Source: an uncultured Lachnospiraceae bacterium (GTDB lineage Bacteria > Bacillota > Clostridia > Lachnospirales > Lachnospiraceae). Taken from it: a stretch of DNA of 64,000 nucleotides. How positions within the stretch are numbered: position 1 is the stretch's first letter; each line of letters starts with the position of its first letter. The translations under genes were made by a program, and so were the position numbers. The stretch lies in assembly GCA_964631375.1 (NCBI GenBank), contig CAZVYQ010000004.1:12910-76909 (forward strand), written 5' to 3'. Positions 10,227 to 64,000 of the stretch are shown one piece after another. The notes under the pieces were generated by a model. The model ran no database searches. It was not told where the DNA came from and saw only the letters and a program-made list of their open reading frames with translations.

Positions 10227-10337
10227 ACCGGCATGAATAGGATGGTATAAAATACTGGAAATATGCAGACATTCCATGTATAATGTTAGGGTGGCTTTGC
10301 GTGCTACGATCAAACATACGGAAAGGTGGTTTACGTT

Positions 10338-11528: not shown

Positions 11529-11571
11529 TCAGTTCTGGCTTTGAGCAAACGAGACAGAAGGGAGTCATTTC

Positions 11572-12972
11572 ATGCAGTGGAAAGAATTGCTATGTGCAGA
11601 TCGTGAGAGAAATCCGCGTCCGAATCCGAATTCTAGTGATCTGCGTACAGAATTTGAAAAGGATTATCATAGGATCATCGGAAGTGCTTCCTTTCGAAGA
11701 CTACAGGATAAGACACAGGTGTTTCCACTTGATCGCAGTGATTTTATCCGTACCAGGCTAACGCATTCGCTGGAGGTTTCTTCGTTTGCAAAATCTCTGG
11801 GACAGAATATATCAGAGATGTTAATCAAGGAGAAGCTTGACGAGACATTTTTGCCCTCCTATAAACAGGATGTTTGTGATATCCTGCAGTGTGCCGGATT
11901 ATTACATGATATCGGAAATCCACCCTTTGGACATTTCGGAGAGACAGCGATCAGAGAGTGGTTTAAAAAGAATCTTCCTCTGATACAGTATCATGGGCAA
12001 CCTGTTTCTGAAGTTCTGACAGAGCAGATGAGAGAGGACTTTTATCATTTTGAAGGTAATACACAGGCACTCCGTGTGGTGACAAAGCTACACTATCTGG
12101 TAGATGAGCATGGTATGAATCTGACCAAGGGACTACTCGGAACGATCATCAAGTATCCGATTGCTTCCAATCAGATTCATGTGAAAACCTATAAAAAGAT
12201 GGGATATTATTATGCAGACAGAGATGTCTTCCATGATATCGAGGAAGCAACCGGAGCCGGGGGATGTCGACATCCGCTGACTTTTCTGCTGGAAGCGGCT
12301 GATGATATTGCATATAAAACGGCAGATATTGAGGATGCCTTTAAAAAGGGATGTCTCTCCTTTGAAAAACTGTTATGGGAGTTAAATGAGAAGAAGGCAG
12401 AGGAGACAGCAGACGAGGCATATGTACAGATGGTCAATGATCTGGAGAAACGTTATCAAAGGGCATTGGAGCGACACATTGACAGTCCGGAGATTTATGC
12501 CCTGCAGAACTGGATTGTGCGCGTACAGGGTCGGATGATCCAGTGTGCGACACACGGATTTAGAGAGCATTACCGCGAGATCATGGACGGAACCTATGCA
12601 GATGATCTGTTTACAGGAACAGAGGGCGCACTGATGATGGATGTGCTGGGTGATGTTGCATATCGTTATGCGTTTATTTCCAAGCCGATCCTGAAGCTTG
12701 AGATTGCAGCTGACAGTGTGTTTAAATTTCTGCTGGAGCGTTTTGTGGATGCTGTGATTTATTATGATACTGAGACAAAGCTGAATGATGTACAGGAGAA
12801 ATTGATCTCACTGATTTCAGAGAATTATAAGACGATTTACAAGATTTATTCCAAGGATAAAAATGATACTGAGAAGTTGTATCTGCGTCTGCTGCTTGTC
12901 ACAGATTCTATCTGCGGTATGACAGATTCATATGCAAAATCACTGTATCAGGAATTGAATGGGATTGCATAG
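11572..12972 (+). CDS. dgt: dGTPase-family HD-domain triphosphohydrolase
   Basis: FEKDYHRII, SFRRLQDKTQVF, RLTHSLEV, HDIGNPPFGH. Confidence 0.85.
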   Translation: MQWKELLCADRERNPRPNPNSSDLRTEFEKDYHRIIGSASFRRLQDKTQVFPLDRSDFIRTRLTHSLEVSSFAKSLGQNISEMLIKEKLDETFLPSYKQDVCDILQCAGLLHDIGNPPFGHFGETAIREWFKKNLPLIQYHGQPVSEVLTEQMREDFYHFEGNTQALRVVTKLHYLVDEHGMNLTKGLLGTIIKYPIASNQIHVKTYKKMGYYYADRDVFHDIEEATGAGGCRHPLTFLLEAADDIAYKTADIEDAFKKGCLSFEKLLWELNEKKAEETADEAYVQMVNDLEKRYQRALERHIDSPEIYALQNWIVRVQGRMIQCATHGFREHYREIMDGTYADDLFTGTEGALMMDVLGDVAYRYAFISKPILKLEIAADSVFKFLLERFVDAVIYYDTETKLNDVQEKLISLISENYKTIYKIYSKDKNDTEKLYLRLLLVTDSICGMTDSYAKSLYQELNGIA

Positions 12973-27584: not shown

Positions 27585-27805
27585 TAAGTATCCGTACAGA
27601 GAGACATTCCTATGAATCGAATGCATGTATCCGGATATGGGAAGCAGGGTGCAATTCCCTCACGAACCCGTCACTGTAAAGTCAGAAAACCAGCTTGGAT
27701 GAATGTACAAAGAACCACGTGGAATTGGTGTTCGTACAGAAAAGAGAGTTTAATAGCCCTCTGTCTCTGCGTGCTGGATACGTGAAGACAGAGGGCTTTG
27801 TATTG
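27585..27805 (+). promoter_or_regulatory. Cobalamin (B12) riboswitch with a terminator expression platform
   Basis: ATGGGAAGCAGGGTGCAATTCCCTCACGAACCCGTCACTGTAA matches the conserved aptamer core GGGAA..GGTG.AA.TCC..CCCG.CACTGTAA. A B12-box-like AGTCAGAAAACCAGC follows, then a strong terminator. Confidence 0.65.
27755..27805 (+). terminator. Riboswitch-associated intrinsic terminator
   Basis: 12-bp perfect stem agccctctgtct / agacagagggct followed by tttgtatt. Confidence 0.7.
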
Positions 27806-27857
27806 GATATGTTTGGAAGTACACGTTTACAATAACATCAAATCGGAGGAACAGAAT

Positions 27858-28283
27858 ATGTCTGAACAGCAGAGTAAGAATGACAGAAGGAATAGGAAGC
27901 TTCCACTCATAATAGGATTTGTGCTGGTAGTTGTATTGGTTGCTGTCATGGGGATTTTATATATCAAGAGCCGACCACAGACACAGGCAGGGGACAAGGA
28001 GATTACGTTGGTTGTGGTTCATGCAGATGAGAGCCATAAGGAGTTTGAAATCCATACGAATGAGGAATATCTGCAGGGAGCCTTACAACAGGAACAGCTG
28101 ATAGACGGAACAGAGGGAGACTATGGACTGTATGTCTTAACTGTTGATGGAGAGACAGTCGATGAAACAAAACAACAGTGGTGGTGTCTGACCAAGAACG
28201 GCGAAGCACATACGCTTGGTGTTGGAGAGACGCCAATTGCTGACGGAGAACAATATGAATTTACATTCACAACAGGATGGTAA
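27858..28283 (+). CDS. Membrane-anchored DUF4430 (transcobalamin-like beta-domain) protein
   Basis: One N-terminal TM helix. DUF4430-like pattern: GLYVLTVDGE...WWCLTKNGE...ADGEQYEFTF. GGAGG RBS before the ATG at 27858. Confidence 0.55.
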   Translation: MSEQQSKNDRRNRKLPLIIGFVLVVVLVAVMGILYIKSRPQTQAGDKEITLVVVHADESHKEFEIHTNEEYLQGALQQEQLIDGTEGDYGLYVLTVDGETVDETKQQWWCLTKNGEAHTLGVGETPIADGEQYEFTFTTGW

Positions 28284-51120: not shown

Positions 51121-54100
51121 ATGCATAAAATCAGCGAAGATCTGTTTCAGAGTGCAATCGATCTGAATGAAACCATTGTATTCGAATATCACATCAAAGA
51201 GGATGTTATCAGCTTCTCGGAAAATGTTAAGAATCACATACCGCTTCCGCTGCGTGTCCCATGCTTTCTCGAGAAATTGGATGCAAGAGGAAAGATTCAT
51301 CAGGACGATGTCCAGAAGGCCATTGCCTTTTTCGGACTGCGGGAAGACATCAATAAAGTTCATATGGAGTATATCCGTTTTTTGGATTTCTCAGGAGAAT
51401 ATCTATGGTACCAGCTAAAGGGGCGTGTCATGAACGATGTGGCAGACGAGCCTGAATTGCTTTATGGTACCATTACTTATGTAGATGATGATGCAAAACA
51501 GGAGGCCGAACAGAAAAATGTAGAGCGTGATACCCTGACGCAGCTTCTGGGAGTCAATGCTTTTATAGCGGCAGTACAGGATTACATGTCAACAATACCG
51601 GAGGGTGTGATTCCCAACCTAATGGTAGTAGATGTAGATGATTTCAATTCATTGGTAGAGCTACATGGTGAGATGGTTGGTGACAGTGTGTTGGTTGAGG
51701 TTGCCAAGATACTGAGACGTGCATTCAGGGCAGCTGATATCATTGGCCGATTGGAGGGCGACCGTTTTGCTGTCTTTATGAAGGGAGTCAGGACACCGCA
51801 TATCCTTTTGGAACGAGCTGCATACATTTGCCAGACGGTCAAGGATGTATGGAATGATTATGAGACCGAATGTGGGATGTCGGTCAGTGTCGGAATAGCT
51901 TCTATGTTTACAGAGGAGGCTGATTTTCCAAAACTATATGAGAAGACACTTCTTGCACTCAGAGATGCCAAGTCCAGTGGGAAGGATACTTACATACTCT
52001 ATGCAAACGATATGGAACGGATGGATTCGACGGTCAATCCGATTTTGAGTTCCAAGGAGATGGAACTGGTTCGTAATATCTTAAATCCCATGTGTGCGTG
52101 GGCATATGCAGTAGATGAAAATTACCAGCTACTGTATCGAAACGACCTGTTACAGGATCGCATTGGAAATGAAGGCTGCGGGATCTGCTATGTGCAGAAT
52201 AAGGGCTATGACGAGCCATGTCCTGATTGTCCGTTGAAGAAGATACAACAAAAGGATACCTCTATAGATTCTGAGGTTTATTCACCTTCTCTTCGCACCA
52301 TGCTGCCGATGCGGACGACAAAGATCATGATGCGTAATGGAAAGCCTGTTTATCTGCTGGCATCCGTGCGAGAGGACATCGATGTTCAGATCGCAACGCT
52401 CAATGAGAGTACGGAACGTTTTCAAGAGGCGATCTATGCGATTCAGGATATCATCTGGGATGTTAATTTGCTCAAGAATACCTGTGTCAGGATCAAAGAA
52501 GATAATGTGATGTCGGTGGTAGAGTCACGTATCGACAATTATGAGAAACTGAGAGAGTTTTACAAGGAACGCGTTGTATACCCCGAAGATTTGGAGGAAT
52601 TCAATCAGGCAACCGACCCCGGATATTTGCGTGAGGCAGTTAAGCAAGGCAAACAGATCATCTGTAAGGAGGTCAGACTACATACCAGCGAGGATGAATA
52701 CTCTTGGTACGCGTTTTATACTGCTCTTGATACAGAGGACGCAAGTGGAGATATGCGTGTGTTTATCGTTGCATTAAATGTAAACGATTCCAAGAAACGA
52801 TATCTGTCCATGATCGAAACCAATATTAAATACGAGTTGATGATGCATCAGAGTTCCTTCCAGAAGGAGATGGCACTCAACAACGAACGCTATGAAAATG
52901 TCAACGAAATGACAGGTGTGCTTGTCTTTGAATACAATAAACTAAATGGTCTGTATTATATGTGTTCGATGTTTGATGAGGTGTTTAAGGTTGATAAGAA
53001 GATGCTGGATCACGAGTGGGCATTGATTGACAGCCTGACGTGCCACGTAGAGGATACAGAGGTATTCGAGAACTTTAAGACACGCTGCAAGGAAGAAAAT
53101 CAGACACAAAAGGTTACGGTTCGTCTATATAATAAGTATGGAACAGCCATCTGGTTTACTGTGATATTACAGGTGCTGAGGGGATTGAACAATGAACCGA
53201 TCCGATATCTGGGTACACTGCAAAATGTGAATGCAGAGATGGAAGTCAAGGTCGAGATGGAATACCGTGCCGATTATGATTCCCTGACGGGTCTATATAA
53301 CAGTGAAGCATTTTATCGTAGAGCATCAGAATTGATTCATCTGAATACGGACAGCAATTTTGTCATGATTTCAGTCGATATTGACAGATTCCGCATCATC
53401 AACGACCGGTTTGGTATTGATGCAGGAAACAAGAGTCTGCAGTGCCTTGGAAAAGCAATTAAGGATGTTGCACCAAAGGACTCGATCGCCAAACGTTATC
53501 AGGCAGACACCTTCAGTATTTTATTATGCTATGAAGGAGATCAGAACATACTGGATTATATGACACGACTGTCTGACAAGGCAGCAGAGTATTTTGAGAA
53601 GCAATGGAATGTATCACTGGCATTTGGGATCTATAAGATCGTCGATCACAATCTGCCCATTCGTCTGATGTGTGACAGAGCCAGACTGGTTAAAAAACAG
53701 ATCAAGGGAAGTACGTTGGCTAATTATGCTGTCTATGATGACAAGATACGGTTGCAGCAGCGAGAACAGGCAGAGATTGAGAGCGAAATGAATGCTGCCC
53801 TAATCAACGGAGAGTTCGAAATGTTCCTCCAGCCAAAGGTCGATGTCAACACCGGACAGATCAACGGAGCAGAAGCACTTGTCCGCTGGAGACATCCGAT
53901 TCGTGGGATCAGGGTACCGGCTACATTCTTGGATCTGTTTGAAAGCAATGGCTTTATCACCAAGCTGGATGTATATATATGGGAAGAAGCCTGCAAATGT
54001 ATCGCACAGCTTCGGGATATGGGTATTACAATGCCAATATCGGTAAATATTTCGCGGATTCATATCAACAATACCGATCTGGTAGAGACACTGCTAGGCT

Positions 54101-54540
54101 TAGTACATAAGTATGATCTGACACCGGATCTGCTTGAATTGGAAATAACAGAAAATCTTTTTATTGATGATGTAACGGCACTGTTTGAACAGATGAATAA
54201 ACTGAAGGCAGCAGGCTTTATCATTCAGATGGATGATTTTGGATCAGGCTACTCTTCTCTGAATATGTTAAGAAGGGCTCCGGTAGATGTGCTGAAGATA
54301 GACCGTTTTTTCCTGGACGAAATCATGGCAACCGAACGAGGCCGCATTATTGTGGAGACATCGGTAAGAATGGCAAAGCAACTGGAGCTGATAGTGGTTG
54401 CAGAGGGCGTAGAGACAAAGGATCAGTTGGATTTCCTAAAGGGAATCCATTGCGATACGGCACAGGGCTTCTATTTTTCAAAACCGGTTCCAAAAGACGA
54501 ATTCCTGACTCTGATTACCGAGGGAGATATTTCCGAATAA
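51121..54540 (+). CDS. Multidomain c-di-GMP protein: PAS-like, degenerate GGDEF, Cys4 motif, PAS-like repeats, degenerate GGDEF, EAL
   Basis: The first GGDEF-position motif is LEGDRF, with RAAD five residues upstream. The second is YQADTF. The EAL domain has EALVRW, VNISR, ELEITEN, DDFGSGYSSL, KIDRFF, EGVET and QGFYF. Confidence 0.8.
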   Translation: MHKISEDLFQSAIDLNETIVFEYHIKEDVISFSENVKNHIPLPLRVPCFLEKLDARGKIHQDDVQKAIAFFGLREDINKVHMEYIRFLDFSGEYLWYQLKGRVMNDVADEPELLYGTITYVDDDAKQEAEQKNVERDTLTQLLGVNAFIAAVQDYMSTIPEGVIPNLMVVDVDDFNSLVELHGEMVGDSVLVEVAKILRRAFRAADIIGRLEGDRFAVFMKGVRTPHILLERAAYICQTVKDVWNDYETECGMSVSVGIASMFTEEADFPKLYEKTLLALRDAKSSGKDTYILYANDMERMDSTVNPILSSKEMELVRNILNPMCAWAYAVDENYQLLYRNDLLQDRIGNEGCGICYVQNKGYDEPCPDCPLKKIQQKDTSIDSEVYSPSLRTMLPMRTTKIMMRNGKPVYLLASVREDIDVQIATLNESTERFQEAIYAIQDIIWDVNLLKNTCVRIKEDNVMSVVESRIDNYEKLREFYKERVVYPEDLEEFNQATDPGYLREAVKQGKQIICKEVRLHTSEDEYSWYAFYTALDTEDASGDMRVFIVALNVNDSKKRYLSMIETNIKYELMMHQSSFQKEMALNNERYENVNEMTGVLVFEYNKLNGLYYMCSMFDEVFKVDKKMLDHEWALIDSLTCHVEDTEVFENFKTRCKEENQTQKVTVRLYNKYGTAIWFTVILQVLRGLNNEPIRYLGTLQNVNAEMEVKVEMEYRADYDSLTGLYNSEAFYRRASELIHLNTDSNFVMISVDIDRFRIINDRFGIDAGNKSLQCLGKAIKDVAPKDSIAKRYQADTFSILLCYEGDQNILDYMTRLSDKAAEYFEKQWNVSLAFGIYKIVDHNLPIRLMCDRARLVKKQIKGSTLANYAVYDDKIRLQQREQAEIESEMNAALINGEFEMFLQPKVDVNTGQINGAEALVRWRHPIRGIRVPATFLDLFESNGFITKLDVYIWEEACKCIAQLRDMGITMPISVNISRIHINNTDLVETLLGLVHKYDLTPDLLELEITENLFIDDVTALFEQMNKLKAAGFIIQMDDFGSGYSSLNMLRRAPVDVLKIDRFFLDEIMATERGRIIVETSVRMAKQLELIVVAEGVETKDQLDFLKGIHCDTAQGFYFSKPVPKDEFLTLITEGDISE

Positions 54541-54561
54541 ATTAATATTTTATGGAAAGGC

Positions 54562-54588
54562 ACTTTGAAGCAGGAGCATTCATACAAT
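54562..54588 (+). promoter_or_regulatory. Candidate mother-cell sporulation promoter (sigma-E/sigma-K type) for sigK
   Basis: AC, 17 nt, then CATACAAT, about 22 nt upstream of the first possible start codon. This compares with the -10 consensus CATACA-T / CATA---TA. Confidence 0.35.
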
Positions 54589-54609
54589 GTATAAAACCGT
54601 AGCTTTGAG

Positions 54610-55242
54610 GTGCTTTTTTTGAAGGCTTTTAAGAAACCGCTGACGGCGGAGGAGGAGCACAAGTATGTGGAACTGTATCGTCAGGGAGACGAGGAAGCAA
54701 AAAATATCCTGATCGAACGGAATCTGAGACTTGTGGCACACATTGTCAAGAAGTACCAGTATTTAAAAGAAGATACGGAGGATCTAATCTCGATCGGGAC
54801 GATCGGACTGATCAAGGCCGTGACGACCTTTGATGCTAAGAAGGGCAGCAGATTGGCAACCTATGCGGCCAGATGTATTGATAATGAATTGCTGATGATG
54901 TTTCGGGGCAGGAAAAAGAGCAGTAGAGATATATCGATTTATGAACCGATTGGGACAGATAAGGAAGGCAATGAGATCAGTCTGCTCGATATCATCGAGA
55001 GTCCACCCGAAGATGTTGTTGAGCGAATGGAACTTGCGAGTAATATAGAAAAGTTGTATGATTATGTAGAGAATCATCTTACAGAAAGAGAACAGGAAAT
55101 AATAAAGCTCAGATACGGTCTTTTCCAGGGGGAGGAAAGTACGCAGAGGGAGATTGGTGCGAAGCTCGGAATATCCAGAAGCTATGTGTCACGAATCGAG
55201 AAAAAAGCTTTATGGAAGTTAAGAGAGGCGTTTACCAGATGA
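54610..55242 (+). CDS. sigK: Sporulation sigma factor SigK, without an N-terminal pro-sequence
   Basis: NLRLVAHIVKKY, DLISIGTIGLIKAV, LATYAARCIDNE and ISRSYVSRIEKKAL closely follow B. subtilis SigK. An in-frame TAA at 54592-54594 limits the N-terminus. Likely start is the TTG at 54619, 8 nt after GAGG. Confidence 0.85.
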   Translation: MLFLKAFKKPLTAEEEHKYVELYRQGDEEAKNILIERNLRLVAHIVKKYQYLKEDTEDLISIGTIGLIKAVTTFDAKKGSRLATYAARCIDNELLMMFRGRKKSSRDISIYEPIGTDKEGNEISLLDIIESPPEDVVERMELASNIEKLYDYVENHLTEREQEIIKLRYGLFQGEESTQREIGAKLGISRSYVSRIEKKALWKLREAFTR

Positions 55243-56474
55243 AGGACAGAAAAAAAGTCATTATGGGCATTGTGATCGGGCTGTTGTCGGTCGCAGTTGT
55301 ATGTGAGTCGTGTATGCTGTTTGGCTATCGAAACCGTTCGGTCACTGCTGCAAAGCAGATTGAGACTTTACAGGATGAGGTGGAAGCCACTCCACTGACG
55401 AATAAAATCAATTCGATCAGAGAACTGATGGATCATTATTATCTATATGATATCGACGAGACAGCCATACGTGAAGGCTTATTGAAGGGCATGCTTTGGG
55501 GGCTGGGCGATCTTTATTCCACTTATTATACAGCCGAAGAAATGGAAGATATTAATCAGGATACTACAGCACAGTATTCTGGGATTGGTGCGGTCTTGAC
55601 GCTGGACGCAGAGTATGGGATGTGTATGGTTGTAAAGACATACGAGGACAGTCCCAGTGCAGAGTCCGGTATGCTTGCAGGTGACTACATTACAGAGGTC
55701 AACGGTGAAGATGTGACAGCCATGGATCTTTCGACGATTGTCACACGGATCAAGGGCGAAGAAGGAACTGCGGTCAAGATCAAGATCTATCGAAAGAGTA
55801 TAGAAGATTATATTACACTGGATATGAAACGCCGTAAGGTAGAGATTCCTTCTGTTGCGGGGGAGATGTTGCCGGATCAGGTTGGTTACATTATGATCGA
55901 ATCCTGGGATATGCTGACGGCTTCACAATTTGTTGAGATCTTCAACGACCTTGGAAAACAGGGTATGCAGAGTTTGGTCATTGATGTCAGAAATAATCCC
56001 GGTGGGCTGGTTCAGGCGTCATGTGATGTGCTGGATCTGTTTGTCAAGGATGGTGGCAAGTTAGTATATACCGTAGATAAGGATGGAAATGAAAAGGACT
56101 ACATAGCTGATGACAAGACAGATCTGGATATTCCACTTGTAGTGTTGGTCAATGGTCATTCGGCATCCTCCTCAGAGATCTTTGCCGGTGGCATCAGAGA
56201 CTATCAGGCTGGGACGTTGGTAGGAGAAAAGACCTTCGGAAAAGGTATCGTTCAGAATATCATCGACATCGGAGATGGCGAAGCCATTAAAATGACAGTG
56301 GCAGAGTATTATCTGCCAAGCGGTGTCTGCATTCATGGAGAAGGTGTAGAGCCAAATGTTGAAGAAGTGTTGGATGAGGAGCTTGCAAGCAAAGCATCCT
56401 TTACACATGAAGAAGATAATCAATTACAAAGGGCATTGGAGATACTAAAGGAGAAGACACAGAACAATCAGTAA
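55239..56474 (+). CDS. S41-family carboxy-terminal processing peptidase (CtpA/CtpB-like) with a PDZ domain
   Basis: N-terminal TM helix, PDZ region, NPGGLV, VNGHSASSSEIFAG, GEKTFGKG. The ATG overlaps the sigK stop (ATGA). Confidence 0.85.
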   Translation: MKDRKKVIMGIVIGLLSVAVVCESCMLFGYRNRSVTAAKQIETLQDEVEATPLTNKINSIRELMDHYYLYDIDETAIREGLLKGMLWGLGDLYSTYYTAEEMEDINQDTTAQYSGIGAVLTLDAEYGMCMVVKTYEDSPSAESGMLAGDYITEVNGEDVTAMDLSTIVTRIKGEEGTAVKIKIYRKSIEDYITLDMKRRKVEIPSVAGEMLPDQVGYIMIESWDMLTASQFVEIFNDLGKQGMQSLVIDVRNNPGGLVQASCDVLDLFVKDGGKLVYTVDKDGNEKDYIADDKTDLDIPLVVLVNGHSASSSEIFAGGIRDYQAGTLVGEKTFGKGIVQNIIDIGDGEAIKMTVAEYYLPSGVCIHGEGVEPNVEEVLDEELASKASFTHEEDNQLQRALEILKEKTQNNQ

Positions 56475-56521
56475 ATCAGGTATGGCAGAAGGCTTGATGG
56501 AACACGCAGGAGGGGAACGGG

Positions 56522-57658
56522 ATGTTATTCATCAGACAGGAAGATCTAAAGATTGGAATGAGACTTGCAAAGCCGATTTATAACAAAAAAGGAGTGCTTT
56601 TGTACGACAGAAATTCGAAATTGACACAACAGGGCATCGAATCTGTCAAGAATTTTGGACTGATCGGAATCTACATACTGGAACCGGCAGAGCCACTGCC
56701 ACCGATGACACAGGATGACATTAACTTTGAACGATTCCAGACAATGAGTGTATTTTCGATTCAGGAGGAGCTACAGTACATTAGTGAAAAGCAAAAATAT
56801 CAAAAGCTCCCGACAATAGCAGATACCGTGATCAAGGAATATGGTCATTTGGAGCGCAAGATTAATTTTGTGCAGAATCTGCGGAGTAACGAAGACTATA
56901 TTTACAAGCATTCATTGAATGTTGCTATTTTATGTTCTCTGATAGCACATAAAATGAATCTGTATTATGAAGAGATGAAGGATACGATTGAGGCAGCAGT
57001 GGTGCATGATATCGGTAAGCTGAGTATCAACCCGGAGATCCTTAAAAAAGGCAGTCAATTAAGTGATACAGAGCGTGCCAATGCGAGACATTGTGAGTTT
57101 ATCGGTCTGGATCTGGTAGAACAGGCTTGCCGTTTGTTGTCGCCCAATATTAAGAGAGTGGCACATCAGGCCTATATGCAGTTGGATAATTTCAGGAGTG
57201 GGAAGTCGGTAGATATGGTAAAGACGATGAAAAGCTCCAAGGTTCTGATGGTAGCAGAGGTCTTTGATACCATGACAGCGATGAGCTATGGGGCTGAACC
57301 CTCCTCAGAGGTTGCTGCCCTGCGGTTTCTGATGGAGCATCCGGAGGCATTTGATGAGCAGGTGGTAGATGCACTGATCAATAGTGTGAATTTCCTGAGT
57401 GAGGGGTGTTGCGTCGAATTGTCAAACGGAGAAAAGGGACTGGTATTGTCAGCGAATGATGATGATATTCTAAGACCAATGATTCTTTTATTTAAGGACA
57501 ACTCCATCATTGATCTGCGGCAACAGCTGCTTTATAACGACCTTGAAATCAAGGATATCATGAAGACACTGGATAACAGGCATGTCATGAATGAAGAAGT
57601 GGCCAGACAATATATGACCGGTGAACAGGCTGATACGATTGATGCAACAGAGAATTAA
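56522..57658 (+). CDS. HD-GYP-like domain protein lacking the GYP motif
   Basis: HSLNVAIL...VHDIGK are retained. At the position of HHE..DG.GYP the sequence reads HQAYMQLDNFRSG. The N-terminal region is typical of HD-GYP proteins. Confidence 0.6.
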   Translation: MLFIRQEDLKIGMRLAKPIYNKKGVLLYDRNSKLTQQGIESVKNFGLIGIYILEPAEPLPPMTQDDINFERFQTMSVFSIQEELQYISEKQKYQKLPTIADTVIKEYGHLERKINFVQNLRSNEDYIYKHSLNVAILCSLIAHKMNLYYEEMKDTIEAAVVHDIGKLSINPEILKKGSQLSDTERANARHCEFIGLDLVEQACRLLSPNIKRVAHQAYMQLDNFRSGKSVDMVKTMKSSKVLMVAEVFDTMTAMSYGAEPSSEVAALRFLMEHPEAFDEQVVDALINSVNFLSEGCCVELSNGEKGLVLSANDDDILRPMILLFKDNSIIDLRQQLLYNDLEIKDIMKTLDNRHVMNEEVARQYMTGEQADTIDATEN

Positions 57659-57675
57659 GAGCCGGAGGCACGATC

Positions 57676-58758
57676 ATGATTGTTTTAAATGACCTGTTAA
57701 AGGAAGCAGGAGAGCATGGGGCATCGGATCTGCACCTTTCTGCAGGTGTACAGCCTAAGATGCGAATTGACGGAAAATTAAAGAATATGCCGTATGAGAA
57801 GCTGGCACCAAGCGATACGCTGGAGATCTTAGTTGGTGTGATGACGGTGGAACAGAGAGAGCGTTTTGAGGAACGCGGAGAAATGGATATTTCCTTTTCG
57901 ATTCCGAAACTCGGCAGATACAGAATGAGTGCCTATAAACAACGCGGCACAGTGGCTCTTGCAGTCAGGATTATGGGAAATGATTTCTCTATCGCAGAAA
58001 ATCTGGGCATACCAAAGGCATTTTTGGATCTGCATAATAGAAAGAGAGGTTTGATCCTGGTGACCGGTCCGGCAGGAAGTGGACTGTCCACCACGGTGGC
58101 TGCTTTGATTGACCGGATGAATCATATGGAGGAATCCGTGATCATCACTCTGGAGGATCCGATTGAATACATGCACCATCATCATAAAAGTATGGTGAAT
58201 CAGAGAGAAATCGGTCTGGATACGAAGAATTATGCGACGGCTTTACAATCAGTCCTGAGAGAAGATCCTGATGTGATTTATATCGGAACCGTACCGGACA
58301 TTGAGACGACCCGCATTGCTCTTGCTGCAGCAGAGGCAGGCTGTCTGGTGATTACAACCATGCATACAATCGGAGCGTATCAGACACTACAGCAGATGAT
58401 TCATGGATTTCCGGTACAGGAACAGGAACAGATCCGTCTCCAGATTGCAGGCATATTGACAGCAGTTGTTTCTCAACAGCTGGTTCCCGTCGCTGAGGGA
58501 CAGGGACGTATCCCTGCATTTGAAGTGATGCTTGCAGATGGCAGAGTTCGCGAGATGATCAGAGCCAATCGGCTCGAGGAACTTCCTGATCTCATAATGG
58601 AGAGCGAGGAAGGCGGCATGCGTTTGATGGATGATTCATTAATCGAACTATACAGAGAAGGAAAGATATCAGGTGGATATGCAGTTCGCTTTGCAGTTGA
58701 TAAGGAACGTGTACTTGAACAAACAGGAGATGACGGATGGATAAAGGATATGCAGTAG
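57676..58758 (+). CDS. PilT-like hexameric ATPase homolog with degenerate Walker A and Walker B (predicted pseudo-ATPase)
   Basis: It aligns end to end with PilT (ASDLHLSAG, ITLEDPIEY, REDPDV). Walker A is GPAGSGLST, with Leu codon CTG at 58084-58086 in place of Lys. GEMRD is replaced by GTVPD. Confidence 0.8.
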   Translation: MIVLNDLLKEAGEHGASDLHLSAGVQPKMRIDGKLKNMPYEKLAPSDTLEILVGVMTVEQRERFEERGEMDISFSIPKLGRYRMSAYKQRGTVALAVRIMGNDFSIAENLGIPKAFLDLHNRKRGLILVTGPAGSGLSTTVAALIDRMNHMEESVIITLEDPIEYMHHHHKSMVNQREIGLDTKNYATALQSVLREDPDVIYIGTVPDIETTRIALAAAEAGCLVITTMHTIGAYQTLQQMIHGFPVQEQEQIRLQIAGILTAVVSQQLVPVAEGQGRIPAFEVMLADGRVREMIRANRLEELPDLIMESEEGGMRLMDDSLIELYREGKISGGYAVRFAVDKERVLEQTGDDGWIKDMQ

Positions 58759-59849
58759 CGTTTAGCAATCAAATAAATGCGGCAGAGGCCATTGATGACA
58801 TATACATCCAACTGGGTGAAATCGAACCCCGTTTTCTGATGCTTTATTCGGATGTGGAGAATTTTGCATTTTATTCCGAAAAACTACATCAGAAGTATCA
58901 GGAAGCTGTGCTGATTGGTGCGACTACCTATCTTGCACTATCCTCGAGAGGATATTCCAAGACGGGACTGAGTGTACTTGCTGTGGCAGACGGCATTGAA
59001 TGCTCTGGTGGTGTGATTGAGGATGCAGTACGCTTTCCAGATAAATATCAGGATGTGATCAGAGAATGTGCAGGACATTTTCCGAATACAGACAACTGTT
59101 GCTGCTTTGAATTAACTACGGCTTTTGGAGACTGCGAAGAAATCGTACAGGATACCTTTCGCAGTGTATTGGAGGAAAAAGAGATTCCTGTCATTGGAGG
59201 TACAGCCGGAAATACGAGTGATACAAAGGAATCCTATGTATCCCTAAATGGTGAGGTGTATACGGGAGCATGTGTATTCGCGATTGTAAAAAATCTCAAC
59301 GGAGCCATTCGATTATATCGTGAAAATCTCTATCGGCCAACAGATCAATTTTTTGATGTGACAGATGTCGATTGTGAAGAACGAACAGTCTATGAATTTG
59401 ACGGGAAGCCAGCTGCAAAGGTTATGGCAAAAGCACTGGGAGTGACAGTGGAAGAACTGCCGGACTATCTGCCGTCACATCCGCTTGGCAGGATCGTCAA
59501 CGGTAATATTTACATTACAGATCATCATGCAGTCACATCGGATAGTGCATTGACTTATTTTGCACGTATTTATAATCACACGATGGTAGTACTGCTAACC
59601 CCCGAGGATCCGCAGACCGTATTAAGTGATACGATTGGGCAGATTCGAAAGGAAACAGAAAGTATCCGATTTATGTTTGTCGTGAATTGTCTGACGCGCT
59701 CTCGATTATTTGAACAAAACGGGAATTTGGAGCGATTTACAGATCGATTACGAGATGAATTGGGAGAGTATGCAGGAGTATCCGGCTATGGAGAACAGAT
59801 GAATTTTGAACATTTAAATCAGACGATGCTCATTGCAGTCTTTGAGTGA
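58737..59849 (+). CDS. Stand-alone FIST (FIST_N plus FIST_C) sensory domain protein
   Basis: FLMLYSD...AVLIGATT, PVIGGTAGN and the C-terminal YGEQ...HLNQTMLIAVFE match the FIST pattern. 22-nt overlap with the pilT-like gene. Confidence 0.65.
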   Translation: MDKGYAVAFSNQINAAEAIDDIYIQLGEIEPRFLMLYSDVENFAFYSEKLHQKYQEAVLIGATTYLALSSRGYSKTGLSVLAVADGIECSGGVIEDAVRFPDKYQDVIRECAGHFPNTDNCCCFELTTAFGDCEEIVQDTFRSVLEEKEIPVIGGTAGNTSDTKESYVSLNGEVYTGACVFAIVKNLNGAIRLYRENLYRPTDQFFDVTDVDCEERTVYEFDGKPAAKVMAKALGVTVEELPDYLPSHPLGRIVNGNIYITDHHAVTSDSALTYFARIYNHTMVVLLTPEDPQTVLSDTIGQIRKETESIRFMFVVNCLTRSRLFEQNGNLERFTDRLRDELGEYAGVSGYGEQMNFEHLNQTMLIAVFE

Positions 59850-59890
59850 TCTGAAATCATAACAAAGCAATGTTACGAGAGGATAAAGCC

Positions 59891-62485
59891 ATGTCACGAT
59901 ATAATAATGGTCTGATCTATACCAACGACAAATGCATTGGATGTAATAAATGTATCTTTGAGTGTCCGGTCATCGGTGCCAATGTCTCCGTTTATCAGAA
60001 TGGGATGAACCGAATCATGGTCAATGAGAAGAAGTGCATTCATTGTGGACATTGCCTCAATACCTGTACACATGATGCACGGGATTATCATGACGATACA
60101 GAACTTTTTTTTGAGGATTTGTCAGCAGGAAACCAGATTGCACTTGCGATTGCACCTTCTTTTTATATCAATTACCCACAGCAGGCCTCTCATATTTTGG
60201 GCTATCTTCGATCACTGGGTGTGGGAAAGATCTATGATGTGGGATTTGGAGCGGATATCGCCACCTATTGCCATATCAAATACATCGAACAGTCTGATGA
60301 AGATAATGGTCAAGGCAAAGCGTATTTGGCCAGAACCTGTCCGGCTCTTGTCAATTATATGGAGTGCTGCGAACCAGAGATGGTGGATCTTTTGATCCCG
60401 ATCCATTCACCGGTGATTTGTCTGGGTATCTATGTCCATCAATACCTGAAAGAGAAAACAGATATTGCGTTTATCAGTCCGTGTATTGCCAAAAAGGATG
60501 AAATCGATGCTGCAACAACGGGTGGGAACATTCGCTATAATGTAACCTACAAGCATCTGATGAAAAGACTAAAGGACATTGATCTAAGTGATTATCAAGC
60601 AGAAAGTGACCTCAAACCAATTGGTCTCGGAAACTTGTTTCCGATGACGGGAGGGTTTAAGGAGTATATTGAGCATTTTATTCCCAGAGAAAAGCTTGTC
60701 TTACGTATGGAGGGGTTTCCTGCAAAGCATGAGCAGCTGTGTGATTATTGTAACAACATCAATCAATCAGACGAAAAACCATGTCTGATTGATATTTTGA
60801 GCTGCAGTCATGGCTGTCTGACAGGACCGGCATCAGAGCCGGATAATTTCCATCTGGTCAATATGCTGTCCGGCTACAGAAAGACACGCAAGGAAACACA
60901 GGAAGGGTTTCTGCAGGATACGGATACAATGGCTGAACGCAGAGAGAGGCTGGAGAATTATTTTTCCGAGCTTGATCTGTCTGACTTTCATTGTGGATAT
61001 ACAGACCGATATCATCAGTCGTTTCACATTCCGGAAAGTACCTATGATGAGATATTTAATACCATGTATAAATATACCGAGGCAGATCGAAATATCAATT
61101 GCCATTCCTGCGGTTATTCTTCCTGCCGTGATATGGTGACGGCTATCGCATACGGCTATAATTGCATGGAAAATTGTGTACATTATACCAAGGATGAGGT
61201 GATGCGACTATACTACACAGACCCTCTGACCGAGATTGCAAACAAGGCGGCATTTATTCGTGACACGACAGAATTATTGCAGAACAATGAGAATACGCAA
61301 TATGTCATCTGTACCATAGACATCAATAATTTTACGGCCGTCAACGATATGTATGGATTCGAGAGGGGTAATCAGGTTCTTCGCTTTTTGGCACGCCGAC
61401 TGCATCAATACTCTCAAGCAGACGGAACCTGTGCCAGACTTGATACCGATCATTTCGCATTATGTGTTCCTTATGAGAAGAGCAGACTGGTGTTTTTTGA
61501 AGAAAAGCCATACTATGATGCGAATGATCTCAACGTTGATTTTCCGATCACGGTGCGTTTTGGGCTGTATCTGGTAGAGGATTCCTATGAGCAGGTTGAC
61601 AAGATGCTGGATCTGTCTGCGATTGCAATGAATCAAAATACAGATAAGAGCAGAAATACATACTTTTTCTATAATGATGATATACGAAAGGAACTTCTCG
61701 AGGAAGCAAGTATCGCCCGTCATATGCGTGAGGCAATCAAAAACGAGGAATTCCAGACTTATCTTCAGCCACAGTATAATCATGCGACCGGAGAACTGGT
61801 AGGAGCAGAGGTATTATGCCGATGGATCAGATCAGACGGTAGTATGATTTCGCCTGATGCTTTTATTCATATCTTTGAGAAGAACGGTTTCATTAGAGAA
61901 TTGGATTATTATATGTGGGACAAGACTTTTCAGCTTGTGCGTAAATGGCTGGATGAGGGAAAGGACCCAGTACCGGTCGCAGTGAATATATCACGAATCA
62001 GTCTGAAGGATGTCAATCTCTGTGAGACCTTCCAACAGTTGAGCGATCGATATCAAATTGAACCGGAAAGAGTGCATCTTGAGATCACAGAAGGTGCATA
62101 TATGCAAAATCAGAGGCAGATCATAGAAATCATAGAAAAATTGCAAAAATGTGGATTTATTATTGCAATGGATGATTTTGGAAGTGGCTATTCCTCTCTG
62201 AACACACTGAAAAGTGTCCCAATTGACATTTTAAAGTTGGATATGGGATTTCTGCGTGGTAAGGACGATCAGAATAAGGGTAGCAGCATCATCAGCTTTG
62301 TGATCAGAATGGCAGAGGCTTTGGGGCTTGCAACCATTGCAGAGGGCGTGGAAACCATTGATCAGGCTGACTTCTTAAAGAGCATCGGATGTGATATGAT
62401 ACAGGGCTTTTTATATGCCAGACCTATGCCGGTGGAACAGTACGAGAAAATATTATTCAATGGAAATAATAGGATTGACAAATGA
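59891..62485 (+). CDS. 2x[4Fe-4S] ferredoxin plus [FeFe]-hydrogenase-like (H-cluster-type) domain plus Cx2Cx4C motif, fused to a degenerate GGDEF and an EAL
   Basis: CIGCNKCIFECP and CIHCGHCLNTC. H-cluster-like motifs RTCP, SPCIAKKDE (PCxxKxxE) and SCSHGCLTG (CxxGCxxG). CHSCGYSSC. The GGDEF position reads LDTDHF. The EAL has EVLCRW, VNISR, EITEG, DDFGSGYSSL, EGVET and QGFLY. Confidence 0.75.
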   Translation: MSRYNNGLIYTNDKCIGCNKCIFECPVIGANVSVYQNGMNRIMVNEKKCIHCGHCLNTCTHDARDYHDDTELFFEDLSAGNQIALAIAPSFYINYPQQASHILGYLRSLGVGKIYDVGFGADIATYCHIKYIEQSDEDNGQGKAYLARTCPALVNYMECCEPEMVDLLIPIHSPVICLGIYVHQYLKEKTDIAFISPCIAKKDEIDAATTGGNIRYNVTYKHLMKRLKDIDLSDYQAESDLKPIGLGNLFPMTGGFKEYIEHFIPREKLVLRMEGFPAKHEQLCDYCNNINQSDEKPCLIDILSCSHGCLTGPASEPDNFHLVNMLSGYRKTRKETQEGFLQDTDTMAERRERLENYFSELDLSDFHCGYTDRYHQSFHIPESTYDEIFNTMYKYTEADRNINCHSCGYSSCRDMVTAIAYGYNCMENCVHYTKDEVMRLYYTDPLTEIANKAAFIRDTTELLQNNENTQYVICTIDINNFTAVNDMYGFERGNQVLRFLARRLHQYSQADGTCARLDTDHFALCVPYEKSRLVFFEEKPYYDANDLNVDFPITVRFGLYLVEDSYEQVDKMLDLSAIAMNQNTDKSRNTYFFYNDDIRKELLEEASIARHMREAIKNEEFQTYLQPQYNHATGELVGAEVLCRWIRSDGSMISPDAFIHIFEKNGFIRELDYYMWDKTFQLVRKWLDEGKDPVPVAVNISRISLKDVNLCETFQQLSDRYQIEPERVHLEITEGAYMQNQRQIIEIIEKLQKCGFIIAMDDFGSGYSSLNTLKSVPIDILKLDMGFLRGKDDQNKGSSIISFVIRMAEALGLATIAEGVETIDQADFLKSIGCDMIQGFLYARPMPVEQYEKILFNGNNRIDK

Positions 62486-62664
62486 TAACCCGTCCATTAT
62501 CATGATTTATGAGTCTGTTAGTTCCTGAGTCTATTTCCTTTGAGGGTTTCTGTATTTCCATAGGATTTTTTCATTCATCCTGCTAATCCATGTGATGATT
62601 ATTTAGTTAATTCATGTTATAATGTTAAGGTTACATCAGTGAGACGACACAGGTGGAGGACAGA

Positions 62665-63174
62665 ATGCAGATAGATGAGATGTATGAACAGTATTATCCC
62701 AAGGTATATAACTATGTATACTATCGTTTGATGAACAGAGAGCGTACGGAGGATATTGTCAGCAGTGTGTTTGTCAAGGTGGTCTCCTGCTGGGATACCT
62801 ATGATGCGAGTAAAGCATCGTTCGGTACATGGATTTTCAGGATTACACAGAACACATTAATTGATTATTACCGTCTCAACAAACAGGTTGCTTCTACAGA
62901 GGAGATCGAATATGAGATGTCTGTAGAGTTTGAGGGAGAGGAAATGATTCTTCAAGAGGAGACGAACCGGGAGGTACATCGCATCCTGATGACACTCAAT
63001 GAATCTGAGCGTGAACTGCTATATCTGAAGTTTTACGCAGAGAAGAAAAACAGGCAGATCGGTGAACTGCTCGGAATGACAGAGACAGCTGTGTCAACTA
63101 AGCTTTCGAGGGTCTTACATAAATTAAGGAATGTAATGAAAGAAGCAGATTTTATGGAACTGGGTTTACAATAA
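62665..63174 (+). CDS. ECF-type sigma-70 family sigma factor
   Basis: Region 2 (EDIVSSVFVKV...WIFRITQNTLIDYYR) and region 4 (ELLYLKFY...IGELLGMTETAVSTKLSRVLHKL). Confidence 0.8.
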   Translation: MQIDEMYEQYYPKVYNYVYYRLMNRERTEDIVSSVFVKVVSCWDTYDASKASFGTWIFRITQNTLIDYYRLNKQVASTEEIEYEMSVEFEGEEMILQEETNREVHRILMTLNESERELLYLKFYAEKKNRQIGELLGMTETAVSTKLSRVLHKLRNVMKEADFMELGLQ

Positions 63175-63254
63175 AGAATGTGACGATTTTTACGTCAGAT
63201 CGTATAATTAGGTAAAAAGTACTATAACTATTTGAAACACAGGAGGGCAATGAT

Positions 63255-63437
63255 ATGGCAGAATTAATTCGTGATGAAGATCTGGAACAGGTTGATGGTG
63301 GCAGACGAATAGCAAGATGCGGTGAAAAAAAGGTATTAACAGGAACAGAATGGGTTTGTACATGTGGACGTAAGAATAAAATAACGGATATAGAATGTGC
63401 ATGTGGAAAAAGCAACCCCAATCTTAAAAAGGCGTAG
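63255..63437 (+). CDS. 60-aa peptide: double-glycine-type leader followed by a Lys/Cys-rich, zinc-ribbon-like core
   Basis: MAELIRDEDLEQVDGG, then RRIARCGEKKVLTGTEWVCTCGRKNKITDIECACGKSNPNLKKA. GGAGGG RBS 7 nt upstream. Confidence 0.45.
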   Translation: MAELIRDEDLEQVDGGRRIARCGEKKVLTGTEWVCTCGRKNKITDIECACGKSNPNLKKA

Positions 63438-63485
63438 CATTTTGCATTCAGGAGCCAATCTGCATGGACGAAGGGATGTGCTGAT

Positions 63486-63674
63486 ATGAGTAATATATTT
63501 CAACGTGCCGATTTTTCAAGAGATGATTCGGTCAAACAATCAATTTATCATCAGATGAAACAAACGGTGCATGACAGTCGGATCACTGTGCTCCCTGACC
63601 AGTTGAGTGATGATGATCTGGAACAGGTAGCAGCGGCCGGACTGCCGGTGAAAAGGGATATCCCCGTTCAATAA
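63486..63674 (+). CDS. 62-aa peptide with an LSDDDLEQVAAAG leader-like motif near the C-terminus
   Basis: The same DLEQV motif as the preceding ORF. Only 10-12 residues follow it (LPVKRDIPVQ). The RBS is weak. Confidence 0.35.
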   Translation: MSNIFQRADFSRDDSVKQSIYHQMKQTVHDSRITVLPDQLSDDDLEQVAAAGLPVKRDIPVQ

Positions 63675-63795
63675 TACAATTCTGAAACACAATCTTATGG
63701 CGGCCGGATGCTTAGGCACCCGGTGATCTGCCATTTTCCACGAAAGAGAAAATATAATATGATAGCGAAACCACTGGAATATGAAAGGAGTTTTT

Positions 63796-64000
63796 ATGTA
63801 CAGTAGTGTTATTTCCGGTGGCCTTAAGGGACTGGAAAGCTACCAGGTGCATGTTGAAGTAGATATATCTACGGGCATGCCTTGCTTTGATATGGTCGGC
63901 TTTCTGGGAAGTGAGGTCCGAGAAGCGAGAGAACGCGTTAGAACGGCTTTGGGAAACAGCGGTTTTTCTCTGCCGCCCAAACGAATCACAGTGAATCTGT
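63796..64000 (+). CDS. comM: YifB/ComM-family Mg-chelatase-like ATPase; N-terminal part only, continuing beyond the window
   Basis: MYSSVISGGLKGLESYQVHVEVDISTGMPCFDMVGF...RERV..AL.NSGF..P..RITVNL is the typical YifB N-terminus. AAAGGAG RBS. Confidence 0.8.
   Translation, partial: MYSSVISGGLKGLESYQVHVEVDISTGMPCFDMVGFLGSEVREARERVRTALGNSGFSLPPKRITVNL

Follow-up and report, generated by a model that had tools for sequence, protein, structure and literature searches.

The 64,000-nucleotide stretch of DNA analyzed here (the window), part of contig CAZVYQ010000004.1 from an uncultured Lachnospiraceae bacterium, contains four closely packed genes that encode an HD-GYP-like protein (the HD protein), a PilT homolog that has lost its Walker A lysine (PilT*), a FIST-domain protein, and a hydrogenase-like protein ending in GGDEF and EAL domains (the Hyd-GGDEF*-EAL protein, the asterisk marking a degenerate domain). 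A preliminary description of this sequence read the four genes as one unit of cyclic di-GMP (c-di-GMP) signaling. We find instead that the locus very probably comprises two independent modules of two genes each: module A, the HD protein and PilT*, and module B, the FIST protein and the Hyd-GGDEF*-EAL protein. A functional unit of four genes is rejected because synteny with relatives fails for the four and holds for each pair, and the four-gene arrangement appears to be an accident of this genome's layout. On balance, we favor an explanation in which the two modules lie side by side, are probably co-transcribed, are not functionally interdependent, and work by the mechanisms proposed below. Their parts are all of known kinds: PilT, HD-GYP, a NosP-like FIST protein, a sensory [FeFe]-hydrogenase, and an EAL phosphodiesterase. 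The four genes are as follows.

56522-57658, + strand: HD protein gene (module A, gene 1), 378 aa
57676-58758, + strand: pilT* (module A, gene 2), 360 aa
58737-59849, + strand: FIST gene (module B, gene 1), 370 aa
59891-62485, + strand: hyd-GGDEF*-EAL gene (module B, gene 2), 864 aa, and 871 aa if translation starts at ATG 59870

Conservation of the two gene pairs

The genomic context of PilT* was compared in seven distinct lineages (the window together with L095, and L001, L004, L007, L010, L012, and L017). The HD and pilT* genes are adjacent in all seven, within a core that runs lepA-hemW-(PAS-GGDEF-EAL)-sigK-ctpB-HD-pilT*-...-comM-dprA. Every lineage has lepA, hemW, the PAS-GGDEF-EAL gene (~1140 aa), the gene for a ctpB-like protease, HD, and pilT*. 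sigK lies between PAS-GGDEF-EAL and ctpB in six of the seven; none was called in L001, which has ctpB. Past pilT*, the lineages variously carry Wzy_C, an extracytoplasmic function (ECF) sigma factor, comM, dprA, topA, codY, and flagellar genes. The FIST and hyd genes follow pilT* in one lineage only, the window's own strain. They also occur in L017, a contig from a metagenome-assembled genome (MAG) that is the same contig as our FIST locus L014, where they are found at the opposite side of the core, flanked by hemW and PAS-GGDEF-EAL. The four genes are thus not syntenic in related genomes, which is the outcome that the preliminary description had itself named as speaking against a single unit.

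The same separation is seen from the side of module B. A metagenome scan with an alignment of 11 FIST sequences returned 70 loci, to which we added L014-L016, looked up earlier; 69 loci had enough downstream sequence to be classified (67 from the scan and two of the earlier ones). At 47 of these 69, FIST is followed by a gene for a Fer4-H-domain-FeS-GGDEF-EAL protein that starts at -17 to +60 nt. At a further 20 it is followed by a 325-aa soluble methyl-accepting chemotaxis protein (MCP) without a sensor domain, and at two by something else, so that a signaling partner adjoins FIST at 67/69 loci. Partner type follows the FIST phylogeny: among clusters at 70% identity, 17 are Hyd-type, 5 are MCP-type, and none is mixed. 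Within at most 5-7 kb on each side of the FIST loci, no HD, PilT*, sigK, or ctpB gene was found except at L014. The co-occurrence of PilT* with FIST and Hyd that the preliminary description suggested looking for is missing from the neighborhoods of the 47 FIST-Hyd loci, L014 apart. The FIST/hydrogenase-like phosphodiesterase cassette itself is widespread across the sampled metagenome contigs of gut and rumen.

Where does PilT* come from? In other Lachnospiraceae, a canonical PilT with an intact Walker A motif occupies the equivalent slot. One contig reads hemW-pilT-comM-dprA-topA-codY-flgB, and a second, L022, reads lepA-hemW-sigK-HD-pilT(canonical)-comM-dprA, without FIST-Hyd. Neither of these two contexts includes ctpB or the PAS-GGDEF-EAL gene. 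Because canonical PilT occupies the same chromosomal slot, PilT* is the positional ortholog of an ordinary PilT, with its catalytic residues lost, and no extra paralog. In L022, the HD protein beside canonical PilT shares 49% identity with its window counterpart and likewise lacks the HH pair and GYP. Since this HD protein is degenerate next to an intact PilT, both the degenerate HD and the HD-PilT pairing are probably older than the loss of PilT catalysis.

Packing and transcription signals

The structural part of the preliminary description holds up well. The four same-strand open reading frames (ORFs) are separated, as it stated, by a 17-nt gap (HD/pilT*), a 22-nt overlap (pilT*/FIST), and a 41-nt gap (FIST/hyd). 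The last becomes 20 nt if translation begins at ATG 59870; ATG 59891, which gene callers use on identical contigs, has the better ribosome-binding site. A GGAGG-like ribosome-binding site precedes each of the four genes. A consensus scan of 54400-64000 found no terminator-like site on the + strand. With so little space between them, one overlap of 22 nt, and no terminator, the four genes probably form one transcript in this genome, and the co-transcription proposed earlier is plausible here. Tight packing in a single genome is, however, no evidence of a functional operon. Annotation with profile hidden Markov models (HMMs) recovered all the domains that had been named (T2SSE, FIST, FIST_C, HD, Fe_hyd_lg_C, Fer4, GGDEF, and EAL), and the motif losses that had been read from the sequence are borne out below.

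A promoter-like element lies within the 3' end of the last gene.

62475-62503, + strand: promoter-like TTGACA-17-TATCAT, within the 3' end of the hyd-GGDEF*-EAL gene

This element is kept in L007, which is without module B, and it stands upstream of the ECF sigma gene. It appears to mark the downstream border of a module B insertion. We found no convincing direct or inverted repeats bracketing 58737-62485, and the idea of module B as a repeat-flanked mobile cassette was rejected on that ground. As to riboswitch control, by c-di-GMP or any other ligand, a scan of the whole window at Rfam gathering thresholds returned only an AdoCbl-II element at 27629-27700. An anti-phage defense system built on the HD protein and the ATPase was also considered and rejected, as PADLOC gave only trivial P-loop matches of ≤21 bits.

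The degenerate PilT

PilT* is a full PilT homolog by profile search. It matches Pfam T2SSE, and TIGR01420 (PilT/PilU) aligns to residues 4-343 with 396.1 bits against a cutoff of 319.1. Its motifs have nonetheless diverged. The Walker A motif reads GPAGSGLSTT where the canonical form is GPTGSGKSTT (K137L), and Walker B reads IYIGT where the canonical form is ILVGE (E205T), so that the losses of the Walker A lysine and Walker B glutamate in the preliminary description are correct. Position 137 is L, I, or V in all nine members of the PilT* clade and K in 110/110 canonical relatives. R207 is replaced by Pro or Leu across the clade (Pro in the window protein), the first histidine of the His box is lost (H223C) with H230 retained, the AIRNLIRE motif has become RVREMIRA, and the Asp box is intact. 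In total, the nine PilT* sequences all depart from the canonical residue at 47 positions where conservation among the 110 canonical relatives is 95% or higher; these near-invariant positions include K137, E205, R207, H223, R240, and the AIRNLIRE motif. Degenerate motifs of this type occur in only ~10 clusters (at 90% identity), with 60-80% identity to the window protein, and ordinary PilT begins at ~55%.

An N-terminal domain of the MshEN type is a feature of known T2SSE ATPases that bind c-di-GMP. As read, the 360 aa of PilT* make up a plain PilT to which no such N-terminal domain has been added, although no motif search was made. The window was also scanned for other parts of a pilus. The Pfam scan covered ~44 window ORFs, all of at least 120 aa except four of 60-87 aa, with other short ORFs left out, and among these ORFs there was no further T2SSE domain and no T2SSF, pilin, PilMNO, or prepilin-peptidase/peptidase A24 domain, which agrees with the earlier statement that the 64 kb holds no other pilus gene. 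Three of the scanned ORFs, of ~200-320 aa, had no Pfam match.

Within the PilT* clade, dN is ~0.10-0.31 and dN/dS is 0.05-0.10 where dS could be estimated (dS ~1.6-5, near saturation). The HD protein gives 0.03-0.09 for pairs within the clade and 0.18 against its ortholog in the canonical context of L022, and similar values were obtained for sigK and ctpB. With dN/dS below ~0.1 within the clade, PilT* and the HD protein are both under strong purifying selection. The two thus look like proteins that cannot be conventional enzymes and yet are maintained by selection, and module A is probably non-catalytic.

One further sequence, P0009 (349 aa, on a 1.2-kb contig), is PilT*-like with the Walker A Leu to about residue 165 and canonical from there on (GEMRD, GHLV). 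This is more likely an artifact of chimeric assembly than natural recombination.

The HD protein

The HD protein matches Pfam HD/HD_5, with NosR as its top NCBIfam match. It is laid out as an N-domain (aa 1-~120), an HD-GYP fold (aa ~125-285), and a beta-rich C-domain (aa ~290-355). Its best sequence matches in the PDB are the HD-GYP proteins 5z7c and 4mcw. Alignment to solved HD-GYP structures gives AYM in place of HHE and DN.RSG (DNFRSG) in place of DG.GYP, as expected from the earlier reading of an HD-GYP domain without these motifs. H130, H162-D163, H190, and D249 are retained; with the HH(E) pair and the GYP motif lost, the set of metal ligands is incomplete. Foldseek matched the AlphaFold2 (AF2) model of the protein (pLDDT 93.2) to DvhD, PmGH, Bd1817, and PA4781 with probability 1.00; Bd1817 is the best whole-chain match, at a TM-score of 0.43-0.44. 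Whole-chain Foldseek returned HD-GYP proteins only, a search in which the flanking domains are not separately identified, and neither the N- nor the C-domain has a Pfam match even at E = 10.

In aligned orthologs the N- and C-domains are nearly invariant. A search of 1.84 billion representatives yielded 57 full-length family members, the window protein included, of which 40 lack both HH and GYP. In this degenerate group, conservation is higher in the N-domain (0.69) and C-domain (0.53) than in the HD domain (0.42), and the order is reversed in the canonical group, that is, the remaining 17 members, which are 24-30% identical, share the N- and C-terminal motifs, and have a perfect HHE...DGxGYP. 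Even the HD dyad is often gone from the degenerate group, H162 being present in 27/40 and D163 in 30/40. Because pocket positions vary across the subfamily, a conserved c-di-GMP receptor site in the HD protein is disfavored; the variable active site argues against a conserved nucleotide pocket.

The FIST protein and its partners

The FIST protein is a stand-alone protein of 370 aa with Pfam FIST and FIST_C domains. It aligns over its full length with the NCBIfam NosP model (NF041558) at 139.3 bits, below the equivalog cutoff of 450. The sole match in a fold search with its AF2 model (pLDDT 94) is the FIST domain of eukaryotic FBXO22. A PDB sequence search returned nothing at E ≤ 1, and a solved bacterial FIST or NosP structure was not found. 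C318 is invariant in one alignment of the family (A5), in which C123 and H359 are present in at least 90% of sequences, and H248 is invariant among the 11 sequences of a second (A6).

Stand-alone NosP regulates adjacent signaling proteins that have no sensor of their own, and FIST domains have been implicated in the control of EAL enzymes such as the GGDEF*-EAL protein CdpA (PMC12570481, PMC8846402). The MCP-paired FIST loci fit this auxiliary-sensor logic because the MCP partner has no sensor of its own, which suggests that in this sister branch FIST is the chemoreceptor's input. For module B, we propose from the conserved adjacency and co-evolution of the two genes that the FIST protein would contact the neighboring phosphodiesterase. 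The FIST-MCP loci are L015, L023, L025-L028, L030, L031, L033, L043, L044, L051, L079, L084, L086, L087, and L089-L092. FIST was not found beside a fusion of the hydrogenase module to an MCP at the one such locus checked (P0253).

The Hyd-GGDEF*-EAL protein

Pfam and NCBIfam assign Fer4, Fe_hyd_lg_C, FeS (PF04060), GGDEF, and EAL domains to this protein, in the following order.

About 59915-60079, + strand: 2x[4Fe-4S] Fer4 domain
About 60137-60835, + strand: H-domain
About 61094-61180, + strand: Cx2Cx4Cx16C cluster
About 61214-61657, + strand: degenerate GGDEF
About 61721-62425, + strand: EAL, predicted active

Motif conservation was assessed over 41 distinct FIST-linked family members. The GGDEF motif reads (L)DTDHF in the window, as had been noted, the family consensus is GGGxF, and the motif is degenerate throughout. 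The EAL domain scores 228 bits in the window protein and keeps the full catalytic set reported earlier (E647-V-L, N706, E738xxE741, D768-D769, K789, E825-GVE, and Q845), and its catalytic residues are invariant in 41/41. Because GGDEF is degenerate and EAL intact, the protein is predicted to be a phosphodiesterase and not a cyclase.

The input end resembles a [FeFe]-hydrogenase. Compared with solved enzymes, TSCCPxW has become ARTCPAL, MPCxxKxxE has become SPCIAKKDE, and ExMxCxxGCxxG has become DILSCSHGCLTG. The four H-cluster cysteines (C157, C205, C312, and C316), all eight Fer4 cysteines, and the four cysteines of the Cx2Cx4Cx16C cluster (C411, C414, C419, and C436) are invariant across the family (41/41). 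Three other positions have changed. The equivalent of CpI C299, the proton-relay cysteine, is A, N, T, or S in the family (T156 in the window); that of M353 is G in 28, S in 10, and T in 3 of the 41 (S203 in the window); and that of M497 is variable (L310 in the window). The side chain of CpI K358 hydrogen-bonds a CN ligand, and the window protein retains its equivalent, K208, together with E211. Scores against the NCBIfam hydrogenase models are well under cutoff (127 vs 450 and 93 vs 406).

Changes at C299, M353, and M497 are the hallmark of sensory-type enzymes, in which M353 is replaced by G in ~51%, S in ~32%, and T in ~17%, and enzymes of the TmHydS type bind the [2Fe] subcluster and react with H2 (PMC10055695). 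A C-terminal [4Fe-4S] domain unifies the putative sensory groups C and D (PMC13104023). The window protein carries the features of this class: four H-cluster cysteines, the three substitutions, and an atypical C-terminal [4Fe-4S] site. The PAS domain that follows the C-terminal cluster in group C is absent, and GGDEF*-EAL stands there instead. The nearest sequence relatives of the hydrogenase module are ~640-aa fusions to MCP signaling domains, an architecture that HydDB lists as [FeFe] group C2, 'chemotactic (putative)'.

Most FIST-linked relatives, at loci L032-L085, are longer, at ~1000-1160 aa. The member at L035 (6085-9537, ~1150 aa), the sole ~1150-aa member scanned with Pfam, has an extra PAS domain C-terminal to EAL, and no domain was found in the C-terminal extension of the member at L069 (~1047 aa). 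At many of the loci among L032-L085, a separate gene encoding EAL alone lies ~4 kb upstream of FIST.

Proposed mechanisms and alternatives

In module B, we propose that EAL activity would be set by the sensory-type [FeFe]-hydrogenase module, which with an inserted [2Fe] subcluster would report H2 and without one the redox state of its Fe-S chain. The FIST protein would act in the manner of NosP, binding the neighboring phosphodiesterase and adding a second input. We regard the chances of this mechanism as even. For module A, the ancestor would be a pair of HD protein and PilT at the Lachnospiraceae locus sigK...comM-dprA. PilT* would in this lineage have lost ATP hydrolysis and been kept by selection, presumably as a scaffold or regulator together with its HD partner; a non-catalytic pair of this kind is the most economical reading of the sequences. 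What the analysis shows is the architecture, motifs, synteny, and selection; the signals that module B senses, its FIST-phosphodiesterase contact, and whatever module A does are inferred.

Several observations weigh against this explanation. The four genes are tightly packed, with a 22-nt overlap and no terminator, so co-regulation in this genome is real. The cassette has landed twice, in the window and in L017, in a neighborhood rich in c-di-GMP genes, and this might point to some loose connection in function. The sample of canonical-PilT contexts comprised two only, and dS is saturated for most gene pairs, which makes the dN/dS values rough estimates of the upper-bound kind. For module B, the FIST protein scores below the NosP equivalog cutoff. 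The K358 equivalent is Lys in only 14/41 family members, part of the family may be without a normal [2Fe] subcluster, and no HydE, HydF, or HydG gene was found in the Pfam scans of window ORFs.

One alternative is the integrated circuit of the preliminary description, in which EAL activity would be set by inputs from the Fe-S/H-domain and FIST, with the HD protein and PilT* serving as c-di-GMP receptors or effectors. Its account of module B survives in our reading: an EAL phosphodiesterase with a dead GGDEF, a hydrogenase-like Fe-S input, and a FIST input. What does not survive is the single circuit of four genes. In its favor, the genes share a strand and, as described above, are tightly packed and overlapping with no terminator between them; the HD/PilT* pair is flanked by two EAL phosphodiesterases; the literature discusses degenerate HD-GYP proteins as non-catalytic regulators (PMC12570481); and a second MAG (L014/L017) has FIST-Hyd close to this core. 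However, four-gene synteny is confined to the window strain, and the HD-PilT pair exists with an intact PilT and without FIST-Hyd. The receptor role finds no support in the HD protein, whose subfamily has a variable active site and no HH pair, or in PilT*, which as read has no MshEN-type domain (the motif search noted above not having been made), and the HD-PilT pairing appears to predate the loss of PilT catalysis. We consider the integrated circuit improbable. It is far less probable still that the HD protein and PilT* are functionless relics in decay. Both have lost catalytic residues, as decay would predict, but both ORFs are intact in seven lineages at 60-80% identity with the same substitutions fixed in all, their dN/dS values are below ~0.1, like those of sigK and ctpB, and the HD protein has N- and C-domains that hardly vary.

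A role for module A in a pilus deserves more weight, although we think it unlikely. ATPase-defective PilT can still support PilU-driven retraction, and PilT* could by analogy act without catalysis as the adaptor or brake of a pilus (type IV or competence) encoded elsewhere, with the HD protein as its regulator. PilT* is the positional ortholog of canonical PilT, lies near comM and dprA, and is under strong purifying selection; a precedent for dependence between such proteins is PilU, described in PMC6762196 as a PilT-dependent retraction ATPase. Against a pilus adaptor stand the changes in AIRNLIRE and at 47 near-invariant PilT positions, and the lack of pilus genes among the scanned ORFs of the 64-kb window. 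For module B, the question is what the hydrogenase module senses. That the cassette is an H2-responsive c-di-GMP switch, sensing H2 through a bona fide H-cluster together with a FIST cue, is a tentative proposal. The module might equally be without a functional [2Fe] subcluster and control EAL as a sensor of Fe-S redox state, O2, or nitric oxide, or as a ferredoxin-coupled redox reporter, a possibility that we likewise put forward with some doubt. The scarcity of Lys at the K358 position, the replacement of M497, hydrogenase scores far under their cutoffs, the absence of maturase genes from the window, and the still 'putative' status of H2 sensing by groups C and D (HydDB, PMC13104023) are all consistent with a sensor of this second kind. 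Against it, the four H-cluster cysteines are invariant, K208 and E211 are retained in the window protein, and the substitutions are exactly those of TmHydS-type enzymes, which bind [2Fe] and react with H2 (PMC10055695).

Relation to known systems

How do the two modules compare with systems already described? The Hyd-GGDEF*-EAL protein shares with sensory [FeFe]-hydrogenases (HydS; groups C/M2f and D/M2e; HydDB C2) the N-terminal 2x[4Fe-4S] domain, the H-cluster cysteines, the substitutions, and the C-terminal Cx2Cx4Cx16C motif. It differs in its output, a degenerate GGDEF with an intact EAL, in having a FIST partner, and in having no PAS directly after the C-terminal cluster. HydDB links [FeFe]-hydrogenases only with a histidine kinase, an MCP, or a phosphatase, and records a diguanylate cyclase only with [NiFe] group 2c. 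The FIST protein resembles NosP, which works with NahK/NosK, in being a stand-alone FIST_N + FIST_C protein beside a signaling protein and in its link to a c-di-GMP output, and CdpA of V. cholerae (FIST-GGDEF*-EAL) illustrates that FIST is able to control a GGDEF*-EAL phosphodiesterase. In contrast to NosP, the window FIST protein scores 139 vs 450 bits, its host is a Firmicute anaerobe, and its partner is a phosphodiesterase with an Fe-S sensor of its own rather than a sensorless kinase.

PilT* resembles the type IVa retraction ATPases PilT/PilU in its full-length homology, chromosomal slot, Asp box, and second His-box histidine, but differs in the Walker A Lys, Walker B Glu, R207, first His-box histidine, and AIRNLIRE motif, and has no pilus genes nearby. 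The HD protein is akin to Bd1817 (HDG"Y"P), which we take to be inactive, and to NosR (HG-GTP) in that the metal site and motif of its HD-GYP fold are incomplete. Unlike these two, it has no receiver domain, has conserved N- and C-domains of its own without a Pfam match, and is paired with PilT. In the literature we found no description of a sensory-type [FeFe]-hydrogenase that is fused to GGDEF*-EAL and has a FIST protein as its strict partner, or of a conserved PilT positional ortholog that lacks the catalytic residues and stands beside a pseudo-HD-GYP protein.

These combinations matter for several reasons. The sensor role of the sensory [FeFe]-hydrogenases is still putative, in part because assays are difficult for the PAS domains, kinases, and MCPs that serve as their outputs, and fusion to an intact EAL domain would offer c-di-GMP hydrolysis as a simple enzymatic read-out of H2 or redox sensing. 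In the fermentations of gut and rumen, H2 serves as a central currency. If the tentative H2-responsive switch is real, H2 partial pressure and a FIST cue would set c-di-GMP hydrolysis, and hence motility or attachment, in gut and rumen Lachnospiraceae. It would be the first pathway from an [FeFe]-hydrogenase to c-di-GMP and would tie interspecies hydrogen transfer to motility and biofilm decisions in these bacteria. The strict pairing with FIST suggests that NosP auxiliary-sensor logic reaches Firmicute anaerobes with a new class of partner. PilT* and its pseudo-HD-GYP neighbor, for their part, may be a natural experiment on the non-catalytic roles of secretion-type ATPases.

Neighboring genes and other features of the window

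Upstream of module A, the window contains three further genes of the conserved core.

51121-54540, + strand: PAS-GGDEF*-GGDEF*-EAL gene, 1139 aa, with both GGDEF motifs degenerate (EGDRF, QADTF) and EAL intact
54610-55242, + strand: sigK (TIGR02846, 304.5 bits against a cutoff of 298.65)
55212-56474, + strand: gene for a CtpB-like S41 protease (TIGR00225, 284.6 bits), directly after sigK and before module A

Because both GGDEF domains of the 1139-aa protein are degenerate and its EAL intact, the neighborhood is predicted to encode two phosphodiesterases and no active cyclase. The sigK match begins at about model position 25, which indicates that there is no pro-sequence. Linkage of sigK and pilT reportedly also occurs in C. 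perfringens.

Downstream of module B, positions 62653-63674 hold a gene for an ECF sigma factor (BldN-family-like) followed by two small ORFs of 60 and 62 aa without a Pfam match; L007 has ORFs of 60 and 66 aa at the position of these two. Farther away, the AdoCbl-II (cobalamin) riboswitch lies on the + strand, scores 36.8 bits against a gathering threshold of 36.5, and stands upstream of a DUF4430 gene at 27798-28283. Finally, positions 10326-12972 contain a gene for an F420-0:gamma-glutamyl ligase-like protein (400 aa) and then one for a second, unrelated HD-domain protein (466 aa), a gene pair that is unexpected in a Lachnospiraceae-like genome.

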